Counted from the stretch's first letter, positions 1-4,405 are shown. The stretch is DNA of 25,542 nt from Eubacteriales bacterium (GCA_045532415.1 JAZSFY010000358.1:1-25542), one strand, 5' to 3'. Numbers and translations: made by a program. The notes: a model not told the origin generated them from the letters alone.

Positions 1-160
1 ATCAAATCTGACGCGCTCGTCCTGTTGCAACTAAGGCTCTGTCTTCGCTCGTTTTACACTAACTCCCTCGACAATCGCCAAGTTGCTGCCACTCAGAACA
101 GCTCTCTGCTTCCGCCACCGGCGGCGTTCGCTGTTCTTCCCCAAACTGAGCCACACCCCG
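1..160 (-). tRNA. 5' part of a tRNA-Pro-like gene interrupted in the D-loop by a long structured insertion (3' part lies outside the window)
   Basis: The minus strand from 160 reads CGGGGTGTGGCTCAGTTTGG, the typical acceptor 5' strand, T8-G9, D-stem GCTC and D-loop AGTTTGG of Firmicutes tRNA-Pro (C1 start). It is followed by non-tRNA sequence GGAAGAACAGC... instead of TAGAGC. It lies 25 nt downstream of a perfect sigma-A -10 box. The anticodon is not visible, so the identity rests on the 5' end only. Confidence 0.65.
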
Positions 161-184
161 TTTTGATTTAAAACAGCGAAGTCA

Positions 185-235: not shown

Positions 236-649
236 TTATTTTCGCTGACCGTCCAAATAGGATTGAAGAATTATTTGGGCAGAAAGGGCGTCGATTACCT
301 GACGGCGTTTTTTGCCGTTAAAATCGGTTATATTAAGATAGGTATACGCCTGAACGGTAGAAAGGCGCTCGTCCACAAAAATAATTTCCAAATCGGTTTC
401 CTTGGAAAGCATTTCGGCAAAGGCTTTTGTTTTTTCAACGCGGAAGGATTCGCTTCCGTCCATATTTTTAGGAAGCCCCAAAACGATTTTTTTGCCGTTT
501 AATTCATTAATTTTTGCAACTGTTTTTTTGCAGGCATCGCGCATTCCTGTTACATTCAAGGTGCACTCGGCAGAAGCAAGAAATTCGGTTTCGTCGCTGA
601 CAGCGATACCAACCCTTGCGTCGCCGTAATCTATTCCTATTATTCTCAT
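236..649 (-). CDS. ruvX: Holliday junction resolvase-like / pre-16S rRNA nuclease RuvX (YqgF)
   Basis: MRIIGIDYGDARVGIAVSD, VLGLPKNMDGS, VDERLST and IDALSAQIILQSYLD are YqgF-family motifs. A GAGGA RBS precedes the ATG. Confidence 0.95.
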   Translation of the reverse strand: MRIIGIDYGDARVGIAVSDETEFLASAECTLNVTGMRDACKKTVAKINELNGKKIVLGLPKNMDGSESFRVEKTKAFAEMLSKETDLEIIFVDERLSTVQAYTYLNITDFNGKKRRQVIDALSAQIILQSYLDGQRK

Positions 650-1192: not shown

Positions 1193-1221
1193 TTGCGTTA
1201 TTCTTGAAAATCGGTTATAAT
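1193..1221 (+). promoter_or_regulatory. Sigma-A-like promoter of lipoprotein gene 1
   Basis: TTGCGT (1193-1198), 17 nt, TATAAT (1216-1221). Confidence 0.6.
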
Positions 1222-1252
1222 GATTTTGATTTTGCTAAGAAAGGAACAGATT

Positions 1253-4200
1253 ATGAAAAAATGGATCATTTGGTTGTTGGCTTGCATGATGCTTTTAACC
1301 GCTTGTGTAACCGAACAGCCTCAAACCTCCGACCAATCCCAAGTGGAAGAAACCGGACCCAAATATACTCTTGTCAGCGTAGGCAAGCCCTATACTGCCA
1401 ACGGTTTTTCCGATAACAAAAACTACGCAGACCTTTTCGGTCAACAGCTTACCGACGGTCAGATTACTCCCGATATCGGCGTTCACTACACCGATACAAG
1501 AATGGTAGGCTTTGAAGATCAATCTACCATTCAAATTGACCTTGGCGAGCCTATGCCTATTACCGCATTGGCTGTACGTTCTCTCGACATGACCAAAGAC
1601 GGCGTTGGTCTTGCTAACTCGGTTCGTTTTGAGGTTTCCGAGGACGGTGTAAAATTCCAAATCATTAAGGTTTGCAAATTTGAGCTTACCGGCGAAAAGA
1701 CTGTAAGCACCTGCAAATATGACGTTGTTGCAGACGGCAAGGAAATCAAGAATTACAGATATGTACGCGCTACCGTTACAGGCAGAGGCGGATATTGGTT
1801 CTATTTCCTTGATGAGGTTCAGGTTTTCGCTGATGTTCCCGAAACCGAAAAGCCTTTGTTTGCACAGTTGGCTTATGAAAACGAAAATATCGACAGACAG
1901 GCATGGAAGGAATTTTCCACCGAAAAGCCCGCTTCTCCTGTTGACGTTGTTAACATTGCTGACGGTCAGAAATACACATTTGACAGCTGTACTTTTGATA
2001 CACGCGCTCCCGAAAATGCAACAATTCTTACAGACAGCATGAGAACCTCCCGTTTGTTTGGCGATAAGGACACATGGGTAGGCTTTAACGGAAACGCAGA
2101 TAAAGCGCCTTCTATTTCCTTTAAATTAGGCAGACGCTCTAACCTTTATTCCTTTAAGGTTCATGCATTGGGTGCAGGCTTGAACGTTAAATATCCCGAT
2201 TATATTGATGTTTACGGCTCTGTAAACGGAAAGACCTATGTTCTTTTGGGAAGAATGTATGCACCTGCAGATTGCGATAACTATGCATACACTCTTACAA
2301 TGCTTGAATACATAAGCTGCAGTTATATTAAATTTGAGTTTCCCAAAACCGATGACGGATATTATTGGGTTGAAGAAATTCAGATTTATACAGGCTACAA
2401 CGAAAAGCAGGAGAATGGCGTTTATCCCGACCTTTCCTTCCCTATTGTTTCCTCTGATGTTTATTGGGATAAAGCCGATGCTGGCATCGACACAGCACAA
2501 AACCTTCTCATAGGCGCAGACCAGCAGATGGCGGCTATGTATTATGACGGTCTTGAAGAAAACGAATGGGCTACCAAATATCCCAAGCTTGCTGCTTATG
2601 ATTTTGAAGGCTTGCATGACGGCAAATTTGCAGTTTCCGACGATTGCTACAGCGGTGAATATTGGTTCACACGCGGTGTCTGCACCGAAATCTTCTATGA
2701 TATTGGCGCTATCAGCTCTATTCAAAAGCTTACTGTTAACGCACTTGAATTAGGCGGTGCGGCTATTTATAGTCCTAAAAATGTAACCGTATTCCTCTCT
2801 AATGACGGCGACAACTGGTATAAGGTAGGCGCAGAAGGCAAGGCAGACGGATACAAAGCTAGCCCCACGGCTATTCGTGTAAAATATGAATTTGCGCTTG
2901 AAAAGCCTGTTGAAGCAAGATTTGTACGCTTCCGTATTGAGCGCGACAGATATTCTGCAACCTTCACCTTCCTTGACGAAATCGAGGCTATCGGTACCAA
3001 GAGCATTTCTGCCGATACAATTAAGCTTTCCGACCTTGGTATTGACCCTGTTATTTATTATACCCATGCCGAAAAGGCAGAGTATGTTACTCTCGACAAT
3101 TCTACAATGAACGCAAAGGACCTTGCTCTTATTGTAGGTAACACAGGAAGCGAAAATATGCTTCTTCCCTTTGTTGCTTATCTTGATGAAGAAGGCAACG
3201 TTAAGGACACATTTATGGACGGCTTCATCTATTGGGGACCTCCTGTTCTTCCCTCCGGCGGCGCTATGTACTCCGAAAGCGTTAAGCGTGACTGGGAGCA
3301 TATGATGAAAATCACCTTTGACGGATGCAACGGTCTTGAAAAATTGGAGGAGGTTGTCGGTCAAGTTAAGGCAGAGCTTAATATTCCCGATTATACCGTT
3401 AAGGTTTATTTCTCCATGTTGACTATTATGGACAATATAACCGATTTCGGTACAGGCTCTTATATTGATGAATCTGGTAACCTTGTTGAAAAAGAACCTG
3501 TAACCTATACCGATGAAGAAGGCAACGAATTTGTTTATGACGGCGACTGCAACGGTGACGGCGTAAACGAAGACCTTACTACATCCGAAGGCAGAATTAA
3601 TGTATTCAACTGGTACATCGAAGCTGTTAAAAAGGAATTTGAAGCAAGAGGATATAAGCACATTGTTCTCGACGGCTTCAACTGGTGTAACGAATCTGTT
3701 CAGTATGGCAACGATGACTCTCACATTATGACCGAGGCAGGTCAATGTGTAGAAGATGCAGACAGCAACTTCATCTGGATTCCCTTCTATGAAGCAAACC
3801 GCTTCTATCTCGGCGACGAAATGAAATTTGATGCTGTTTGTATGCAGCCCAACTATGTATTTACAAACGATGCTCCTCTTTGGAGATTCTTCACATCTGC
3901 AGAAGCAACAAAGACACTTAACATGAGCATCGAAATCGAGCATTCTTATCAATGTCTTGGCGACCCCGATTATGCAAGAAGCTATATGCTTTATCTTATG
4001 TACGGCGTAGAATATGGCTATATGGACGGCATACATATGTATTATCAGGATACCGAAAACTATGCTTTGATGGCATACAGTGATAATCCTCTCTGCCGCT
4101 TGCAGTATGATGCAACCTACCACTTTATTAAGGGCGACCTTGATATAACTCCCGATGTAAAAGAAAAGATTAATGTTTCGGGCAGCGCAAGCACTATCAT

Positions 4201-4405
4201 CACAGGCAATCTCAACCCCGATAATGCAATCGAATTTTACACTCTTGTAAAGCAGCCTGAGCATGGTTATATTTCTCTTAACGCAGAAGGTCAATTCTGC
4301 TATTACCCCGAAAAGGGATATACCGGCACAGATACATTTACCTATACCTATAACAAGCTTCTCGGCGAATCCGAAGAATGCACAGTTGAAATTAACATAG
4401 GCTAA
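1253..4405 (+). CDS. Large lipoprotein: 3 discoidin (F5/8 type C)-like domains + DUF4855-like putative glycoside hydrolase barrel + C-terminal Ig-like (Big_9/cadherin-like) domain
   Basis: The AAAGGA RBS supports the ATG at 1253. The signal peptide has a lipobox (MKKWIIWLLACMMLLTA-C). Discoidin-like motifs recur (LTDG, IDLG, SEDG, RYVR, F.DE). DUF4855-like motifs are LLPFVAYLDEEG...DTFMDGF, GFNWCNE, FIWIPFY and AVCMQPNY. The C-terminus is PEHGYISLNAEGQFCYYPEKGYTGTDTFTY. Confidence 0.85.
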   Translation: MKKWIIWLLACMMLLTACVTEQPQTSDQSQVEETGPKYTLVSVGKPYTANGFSDNKNYADLFGQQLTDGQITPDIGVHYTDTRMVGFEDQSTIQIDLGEPMPITALAVRSLDMTKDGVGLANSVRFEVSEDGVKFQIIKVCKFELTGEKTVSTCKYDVVADGKEIKNYRYVRATVTGRGGYWFYFLDEVQVFADVPETEKPLFAQLAYENENIDRQAWKEFSTEKPASPVDVVNIADGQKYTFDSCTFDTRAPENATILTDSMRTSRLFGDKDTWVGFNGNADKAPSISFKLGRRSNLYSFKVHALGAGLNVKYPDYIDVYGSVNGKTYVLLGRMYAPADCDNYAYTLTMLEYISCSYIKFEFPKTDDGYYWVEEIQIYTGYNEKQENGVYPDLSFPIVSSDVYWDKADAGIDTAQNLLIGADQQMAAMYYDGLEENEWATKYPKLAAYDFEGLHDGKFAVSDDCYSGEYWFTRGVCTEIFYDIGAISSIQKLTVNALELGGAAIYSPKNVTVFLSNDGDNWYKVGAEGKADGYKASPTAIRVKYEFALEKPVEARFVRFRIERDRYSATFTFLDEIEAIGTKSISADTIKLSDLGIDPVIYYTHAEKAEYVTLDNSTMNAKDLALIVGNTGSENMLLPFVAYLDEEGNVKDTFMDGFIYWGPPVLPSGGAMYSESVKRDWEHMMKITFDGCNGLEKLEEVVGQVKAELNIPDYTVKVYFSMLTIMDNITDFGTGSYIDESGNLVEKEPVTYTDEEGNEFVYDGDCNGDGVNEDLTTSEGRINVFNWYIEAVKKEFEARGYKHIVLDGFNWCNESVQYGNDDSHIMTEAGQCVEDADSNFIWIPFYEANRFYLGDEMKFDAVCMQPNYVFTNDAPLWRFFTSAEATKTLNMSIEIEHSYQCLGDPDYARSYMLYLMYGVEYGYMDGIHMYYQDTENYALMAYSDNPLCRLQYDATYHFIKGDLDITPDVKEKINVSGSASTIITGNLNPDNAIEFYTLVKQPEHGYISLNAEGQFCYYPEKGYTGTDTFTYTYNKLLGESEECTVEINIG

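Follow-up and report, generated by a model that had tools for sequence, protein, structure and literature searches.

Positions 160-10 of the window hold what we read, with slightly more confidence than doubt, as one copy of a small insertion element that carries no gene and resides in gut and rumen Clostridia and in phages. By window we mean the whole stretch of DNA that was analyzed, 25,542 nucleotides from Eubacteriales bacterium (GCA_045532415.1 JAZSFY010000358.1:1-25542). The copy is located after G18-G19, at the D-loop position of a truncated spare tRNA-Pro(CGG), between the promoter and the intact gene. Its core, hereafter the module, apparently represents a family of approximately 105-120 nt that folds into two hairpins in a strand-specific manner and has gone without description: we found no account of it in the literature searched and no entry in Rfam 15.

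The window copy lies in a truncated tRNA-Pro

The features of the locus are collected in Table 1. The promoter of the unit is of the sigma-70 type with an extended -10 TG and, as the original prediction had stated, it is perfect; the closest relative (G207) has a matching promoter at the equivalent place of the locus. The 20 nt of tRNA-Pro 5' end that had been read behind it are also present, with a start about 1-2 nt away from the one proposed. This fragment A has the same sequence as nt 1-20 of the intact G207 tRNA-Pro(CGG) and covers the acceptor 5' strand, the D-stem 5' strand and the D-loop up to G18-G19. The foreign insert that had been claimed in place of TAGAGC corresponds to the core, but the claim missed that the tRNA resumes behind it as fragment B. 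The latter agrees with GAGCGCGTCG of the G207 tRNA-Pro, and in relatives that have GAGCGCTTGG in their own tRNA, GAGCGCTTGG occurs also at the position of fragment B. GAGC at 18-15 is able to pair with GCTC at 151-148, which gives a D-stem that closes the module. The anticodon-stem variant of fragment B is that of the local tRNA, namely CGTC in the window and in G207, as compared to CTTGG in further species of the genus. Hence the stub either arose from the local gene or is kept matched to it by gene conversion.

Table 1. Features of the tRNA-Pro locus in the window
Feature	Position	Strand	Details
Promoter of the tRNA-Pro unit	213-185	-	-35 TTGACA at 213-208, 17-nt spacer with TG, -10 TATAAT at 190-185; 12 of 12 consensus matches
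Leader, promoter to tRNA-like head	161-184	-	About 24 nt; putative transcription start, placed from the promoter position
Fragment A	160-141	-	CGGGGTGTGGCTCAGTTTGG; copy of tRNA-Pro(CGG) nt 1-20
Core module M	140-20	-	121 nt; 151.6 bits with covariance model R1
Hairpin A of core M	137-130/102-95, C126-G106, 124-120/116-112	-	
Linker between hairpins A and B of core M		-	GAGUGGCAGC
Hairpin B of core M	86-81/32-27, 79-77/37-35, 74-72/41-39	-	Tip variable
Conserved 3' tail of core M		-	GCAACAGGA
Fragment B	18-10	-	GAGCGCGTC; tRNA-Pro nt 23-31, D-stem 3' strand and start of the anticodon stem
Start of A/T-rich spacer	1-9	-	Window position 1 is contig position 1, the contig end
ruvX/yqgF, upstream neighbour	236-649	-	Holliday junction resolvase-like; PF03652, E = 2.6e-38; synteny anchor

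By analogy with G207, some 35 further spacer bases, an intact tRNA-Pro(CGG) and a terminator would be expected beyond the contig end. The assembly that contains the window is 71% complete and holds 23 tRNAs, none of which is a tRNA-Pro; hence the downstream tRNA-Pro gene is simply unassembled. Running ARAGORN on the window returned no tRNA, and Rfam likewise gave none over the element. Other metagenome assemblies break near position 11 too. In two animal-gut metagenomes, the summed contig depth over hairpin A (97-144) rises up to about 10-fold (58x) and about 40-fold (230x) above the flanks, so this stretch is common to many organisms or copies in both metagenomes. We also considered an rRNA operon leader, as the contig end (AGATTTGAT) looks like a 16S start; this candidate was discarded because tRNA-Pro follows in relatives and the genome has no SSU rRNA match. 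Elsewhere in the window, positions 1220-4405 (+) encode a protein of 1061 aa in which F5/8 type C, DUF4855 and Ig-like domains were recognized; it is probably secreted and glycan-binding or glycan-degrading, and a second ORF of approximately 1030 aa follows; both are unrelated to the module.

The same locus in related genomes

A BLAST search of 40 related genomes recovered the element (tRNA head, core and tRNA nt 22-32, approximately 146 nt) at 76-85% identity, either as a single unit or in tandem arrays of up to three copies. Where the loci of relatives reach far enough, the arrays lie directly upstream of a complete tRNA-Pro(CGG). The flank of G207 is 90% identical to the window, and in its locus, promoter and leader precede a single element, behind which an intact tRNA-Pro(CGG) with a terminator follows after a spacer of 44 nt. 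An uninterrupted gene for the same anticodon, one of the checks proposed in the original prediction, is thus found 44 nt downstream of the element in G207. These loci imply that the tRNA is not resumed and that the element is a stub ahead of the real gene. Indeed, the 3' tRNA half that had been expected to resume amounts to nine nucleotides in the window, and in the complete loci of relatives no anticodon arm, T arm or 3' acceptor strand belongs to the interrupted copy, the intact cognate tRNA following behind it. The tRNA homology ends after nt 31 here, between nt 25 and nt 46 in relatives and at nt 62 in one copy. With the rest of the tRNA missing, the suggestion of a tRNA with an expanded D-arm is unsupported.

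The interval between promoter and tRNA-Pro near ruvX varies within the genus: it is filled in the window, G207 and G196 and empty in G182 and G190, while the same ruvX-side site carries a decayed half-hairpin in G178.

In another relative (G009:C6, L005 1672-1946), the module unit is followed by a second stub that spans tRNA-Pro nt 1 to about 38. Approximately 170 nt of unrelated DNA lie beyond the stubs, and then an intact tRNA-Pro whose anticodon stem reads CTACG, as compared to CTTGG in both stubs. This genome is an exception to the local-variant rule: either its stubs stem from a gene other than the tRNA-Pro now beside them, or the latter has changed in the meantime.

A widespread family with a conserved fold

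Covariance model R1 detected the module in 55 of 151 genomes that represent the order in our sample, and a single genome may have as many as 11 copies. Together with a scan of GTDB, this search recovered the similar inserts in Clostridia tRNA genes that the original prediction mentioned. Among GTDB species representatives, at least 120 species loci contain the degenerate core pattern. The host titles of the 80 matches listed are nearly all those of gut or rumen Clostridia, and the matches include Faecalibacterium, Ruminococcus, Oscillibacter, Faecousia, Acutalibacteraceae, Lawsonibacter and Christensenellaceae. The genome of the window itself has a second copy (C120:296-449), which lies behind its own promoter and approximately 50 nt upstream of tRNA-Ser(UGA). 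Weaker BLAST matches likewise revealed a homologous core after G18-G19 of a tRNA-Ser 5' fragment, upstream of an intact tRNA-Ser.

All helices drawn in the original prediction (137-130/102-95, 124-120/116-112, 86-81/32-27, 79-77/37-35 and 73-70/43-40) are found where it had placed them. Taken alone, the window copy has an unexceptional fold (z = -1.6). The proposed search for homologues and covariation returned a multi-copy family in which the helices covary strongly across approximately 190 homologues. In an alignment of 105 copies, 23 of the 27 pairs show double changes, 91% of the cells are pairing as compared to 67% in shuffles, and the covariation score is 0.58 versus 0.19 in shuffles and 0.04-0.12 with slid partners. 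This alignment was fitted to model R1; an independent check was provided by MAFFT and RNAalifold on 15 aligned homologues (A2), which gave two hairpins and 17 of 27 pairs kept through double changes. U-G pairs are common at two positions of the 105-copy alignment, which restricts the fold to the tRNA-sense strand. The consensus consists of two plain, dissimilar hairpins, with the conserved unpaired nucleotides concentrated at the junctions, and mutual information gave no pseudoknot beyond them. Compensatory changes across many sequences are the conserved structure by which a structured non-coding RNA family is recognized, and on this basis the module would be one. No Rfam 15 family other than tRNA itself matched the window and the complete loci at gathering thresholds or at E up to 10; this holds for the intron families as well, in agreement with the absence of a group I or II core noted beforehand. 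Resemblances to the hammerhead, SRP domain IV, the K-turn and group II domain V were inspected by eye and discarded.

Modules reside in partial copies of adjacent tRNAs

To describe the genomic context, we took a census of 172 non-identical full-length copies from two sets of loci. Ninety-four of them lie within 400 nt of a tRNA gene, as compared to a chance expectation of about 2%, estimated from roughly 50 tRNA genes per 2 Mb. Almost all of these (91 out of 94) are on the strand of the tRNA, 51 upstream and 40 downstream. The left flank of 45 of the 51 upstream copies is the 5' part of the neighbouring tRNA, beginning at nt 1 in 34 of these. It ends at nt 18-23 in 40 of the 45, and occasionally at nt 31-37 or 45; on the right, the tRNA is continued for 5-28 nt and then stops. 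In 15 of the 40 downstream copies, the right flank corresponds to the tRNA through to its 3' end, starting in the anticodon, variable or T region, and the terminator is often duplicated as well. The partial tRNA hosts comprise at least 13 amino-acid identities, including Pro, Ser, Leu, Met, Trp, Lys, Ala, Asn and Gly. None of the 91 co-oriented tRNA-adjacent copies lies within a complete tRNA. The module usually occupies a loop position (D, anticodon, variable or T) of a partial tRNA copy that adjoins the intact cognate tRNA, and its orientation is nearly always sense.

The junctions lie in a run of G. The module begins with GGGGA... and ends with ...GCAACAGGA, which are not inverted copies of each other, and inspection of the junctions by eye gave neither inverted ends nor target duplication. 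Sites away from tRNAs also occur, as in the case of a copy just 3' of the guaA stop codon. No recurrent protein gene adjoins the bacterial copies that were examined. A guide-RNA scaffold of TnpB or IscB with a tRNA-derived guide was rejected, since no such gene adjoins the examined copies and the ORF abutting one of them is guaA.

The flank on the far side of the module is duplicated in 59 of 79 tRNA-adjacent copies as compared to 7 of 44 others and none in shuffles. Duplication is thus linked to tRNA targets, and insertion need not bring it about. In addition, the position of the module in the tRNA copy correlates with the side of the tRNA on which it lies.

A possible route to the tRNA stubs

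In the reading that we favour, insertion would occur in the transcript-sense strand, next to a G run and at single-stranded or hairpin-flanked sites, with the machinery supplied in trans or by the host. An insertion into a single essential tRNA gene would be lost, while one that hits one copy of a tandem duplication would survive. Recombination between the repeats would then remove the module, through the distal repeat, or the sole intact gene, through the proximal one; persisting lineages would retain a short distal repeat and have lost the proximal part. Such survivorship would place upstream modules near the 5' end of the tRNA and downstream modules near its 3' end, with the part facing the intact gene deleted. 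The model, which is our inference, fits the counts, namely D-loop sites in upstream stubs, variable or T-region sites in downstream stubs, and ragged inner breakpoints. It is also possible that the duplication was created during the insertion itself.

As for the window, the tRNA-Pro promoter would drive transcription of the unit, which would form part of the pre-tRNA leader, and the D-stem 151-148/18-15 could close the module in the transcript. Maturation of the downstream tRNA by RNase P would cut the leader away together with the module, so the latter would be neither spliced nor needed for the tRNA. The sequence was matched in DNA runs only, and no RNA-seq run with it was found.

Apparent mobility and candidate machinery

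Dispersed copies of the module are 98-99% identical within G156 and 95-99% within G095. Furthermore, the core of a Pro-context copy in one family (G026) is 97% identical to that of a Ser-context copy in another (G035). A REP-like two-hairpin repeat, CCAAGGCCCCCTTGT.AAAGGGG / GCTGTCACC..GGTGACTGGGGG, was observed in G095 (L097, G095:C3, approximately 90 nt downstream of the module; L095 and L098), a genome that is also rich in short tandem repeats of the CCTCATT type. The repeat is found both unfilled and with the module between its two hairpins, thus providing an empty and a filled site in one genome, and this pair has no duplication beyond ambiguous G residues. G156 and its congener G049 are too divergent for a clean comparison of filled and empty sites. 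Near-identical dispersed copies, together with filled, empty and decayed alleles, suggest at the sequence level that the module is mobile. The high identity within genomes could instead reflect gene conversion rather than recent movement.

We searched the genomes for proteins that could mobilize the module. The Y1 transposase domain (PF01797) is only weakly enriched, occurring in 27 of 55 module-positive and 30 of 96 module-negative genomes, and it was found in none of the seven genomes of family f17, six of which have the module. Similarly, RVT_1 was not found in G095 (96% complete) and G069, both rich in modules and nearly complete; more divergent reverse transcriptases may have escaped this search. 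Neither protein is therefore required for the module, and mobilization by IS200/RAYT or by a reverse transcriptase was rejected. As a separate observation, an ORF of 189 aa (G117:C34 24212-24499; L093 234-521) matches Y1_Tnp weakly (E = 1.6e-5) and is encoded approximately 280 nt downstream of a module, in the same orientation. Several genomes with the module, G000:C30 among them, contain comparable ORFs that are weakly Y1-like.

Phage copies

At least 115 IMG/VR viral contigs contain the core pattern, most of them from one group of tailed gut phages. The copies are in sense between late structural genes (terminase, portal and head) and lie away from att sites and tRNAs; no tRNA was found in the 11 phage contigs scanned. 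A BLAST search of GenBank phage records with the module returned no match. In one contig (L272 7327-7434; also in L308, L256, L351 and L321), the module is in frame and stop-free within a 2004-aa ORF that has a weak LPD3 match. The region of the ORF in which it lies is a low-complexity linker, and the corresponding place in a related phage, L317, is occupied by another sequence. An origin from microviruses or rolling-circle replicons was also considered and rejected, given that the small viral contigs are pieces of larger tailed-phage genomes and that the neighbouring 'replication initiation protein' has no Pfam match.

Alternative explanations

The module may instead be a non-coding RNA that is useful to its host in cis or trans, with a structure kept for cell or phage use and a spread that is secondary. 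This RNA could be a small RNA that RNase P releases from the leader, it could serve processing or stability, or it could act on the transcribing polymerase in the manner of antitermination RNAs. The orientation in sense within transcription units argues for it, as do the position of both own-genome copies right behind a strong promoter, the sense copies between phage late genes and the clustering of conserved unpaired nucleotides at junctions. The helices are also kept by compensatory changes in low-copy genomes of the genus, which could reflect a host function. However, the module is patchy even within the genus, where the tRNA-Pro locus of G182 and G190 works without it and the copy of G178 has decayed. 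Many downstream-type copies lie behind the tRNA terminator, where little transcription is expected, one copy sits in frame inside a phage ORF, and no conserved protein partner is found nearby. We consider a host-useful RNA fairly unlikely.

An unlikely, more radical reading is that the module represents a new class of mobile elements without any protein. It would exist as an RNA or single-stranded DNA form of approximately 115 nt, and its movement would rely on chemistry of its own or on general RNA or DNA enzymes hijacked from the host. It would enter, in sense, loops that are exposed in stable-RNA genes, intergenic sites flanked by hairpins, and operons of phages, and the tRNA genes that it hits would survive solely through tandem duplication.

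It is quite improbable that the stubs are scars of site-specific integration, that is, attL/attR-type tRNA duplications left by tyrosine-integrase elements, with the module as the remaining end (CIME-like) and the tandem units formed by accretion. Such att duplications share with the module the partial tRNA copies beside intact tRNAs and the tandem units, here arrays of two to three; moreover, the module is frequent among phage contigs, and integrases reportedly use the anticodon-loop and T-loop regions, as Williams is said to have described in 2002. They differ in that tRNA homology flanks the module on both sides (nt 1-20, then nt 20-32), which puts it inside a tRNA copy and not beside a crossover segment. 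The commonest site is the D-loop, and the predominance of 5' fragments upstream is unusual for integrases. In addition, the units measure only approximately 180 nt and have no recombinase, modules occur at non-tRNA sites without duplication, and the phage copies are remote from att sites and tRNAs.

Movement at the RNA level can also be imagined: the module RNA would join exposed loops of abundant stable RNAs, by itself or through a host ligase or nuclease, and would then be copied into DNA. The insertion points are indeed tRNA loops, single-stranded in RNA, the orientation is sense, target duplications and inverted ends are absent, and the junctions fall at a G run, including the nested self-junctions of G116. 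The same loops are exposed also in the single-stranded DNA of the non-template strand, so the pattern of sites cannot tell an RNA from a DNA route. With no RVT_1 found in G095 and G069 and no match to a ribozyme family, we hold this explanation to be very improbable.

Finally, it is scarcely credible that the module is an intron or intervening sequence which self-splicing, or nucleases and a ligase of the host, would excise from a tRNA-Pro precursor interrupted in the D-loop to give a working tRNA: the insert does lie exactly after G18-G19, in sense behind a strong promoter and within a D-stem that can close around it, and like bacterial group I introns of the anticodon loop and archaeal BHB introns (including those of the D-loop) it is a structured sense insert at a defined loop position, but nt 32-76 of the interrupted copy are missing here and in all relatives, in complete loci of relatives the tRNA homology stops 5-28 nt after the insert, none of the 91 co-oriented copies is in a complete tRNA, Rfam gives no group I or II match, and the intact cognate tRNA lies alongside, 44 nt downstream in G207. 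Excision of the insert could not restore a tRNA, since the copy that hosts it is incomplete, and neither a catalytic intron core nor a bulge-helix-bulge motif at the junctions was recognized in the fold of two plain hairpins. The intron reading of the original prediction is thus rejected, and its reading as a tRNA-targeting repeat stands.

Comparison with known repeats

The nearest analogues of the module are the tRNA-linked repeats and RtT RNA of Escherichia coli and the small non-autonomous repeats, such as REP, MITE and RPE. The E. coli tyrT repeat carries a 19-nt copy of the tRNA 3' end. As in the case of the module, the E. coli units adjoin a tRNA, each contains a short copy of one tRNA end, and their origin is unexplained. 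A passage of PMC3318445, which cites Bosl and Kersten 1991, describes the 178-bp repeats of the tyrT operon (RtT/rttR) as co-transcribed with the tRNA, with a small RNA processed from the unit. RtT is in Rfam, and the module has neither sequence nor covariance-model similarity to it, only tRNA itself being matched. Moreover, the E. coli units copy the 3' end only and are located downstream, whereas the module is embedded in a tRNA fragment on either side of the gene and occurs also away from tRNAs and in phages.

Similar to REP/REPIN sequences, MITEs and Rickettsia palindromic elements (RPEs), the module is short, gene-less, structured, multi-copy and patchy. It differs from all of them in being strand-specific and asymmetric, with two unlike hairpins and a bias for the sense strand and for tRNA loops. 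Among the readings of the original prediction, a MITE-like repeat that targets tRNAs fits best. In common with classical MITEs, the module is multi-copy, dispersed and non-coding, and its presence varies among relatives, also at the syntenic locus; terminal inverted repeats and target-site duplications, on the other hand, were not seen by inspection, and the module is strand-specific. The co-occurrence with Y1 transposases expected of REP/REPIN sequences with RAYT was not observed (27 of 55 versus 30 of 96 genomes, and none of seven in f17). Dependence on a retroelement is equally unsupported, as RVT_1 was not found in G069 and in G095, where copies are 95-99% identical. RPEs can occupy RNA genes, transcribed DNA between genes or positions in frame with an ORF, and the copy in frame in the phage ORF resembles them in this trait. 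IS200/IS605 elements and group IIC introns resemble the module in their orientation-specific and duplication-free insertion adjacent to hairpins or loops and in their subterminal hairpins. In contrast, the module has no adjacent transposase, TnpB or intron-encoded protein, its two hairpins are unlike each other, and it does not have the architecture of group II domains.

The module is a very common and strongly structured element of major gut genera, yet Rfam 15 lacks it. Metagenome assemblies break on it at tRNA loci, as at the contig end of the window, and the tRNA-like stubs that it makes can mislead annotation and finders of integration sites. The puzzle is the route by which a gene-less, asymmetric and strand-specific module reaches tRNA loops and phage operons. 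If true, the survivorship model would offer a general account of tRNA-linked repeats, which have been unexplained since the 1970s, and movement as RNA or single strand without a dedicated enzyme would amount to a new kind of mobile element.

Nested modules and fold-back hairpins

Two loci of G116:C96 (L034 and L054), 8.4 kb apart, contain arrays of truncated pieces of the module joined head-to-tail at ...CTGTGG|GGAG and ...GAGTGG|GGAG. The arrays adjoin ORFs without Pfam matches, and the module seems to have restarted repeatedly within its own copies. In many units, the truncated side carries a piece of tRNA together with its own inverted complement, which form a tight hairpin; the complement follows the piece in the upstream type and precedes it in the downstream type (L024 1621-1642, L012, L049 and L028 1460-1500). 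One example consists of CATAACGGGGC and then GCCCCGTT. These hairpins may have originated from fold-back synthesis, from quasi-palindrome correction or from selection for a hairpin at the RNA end.
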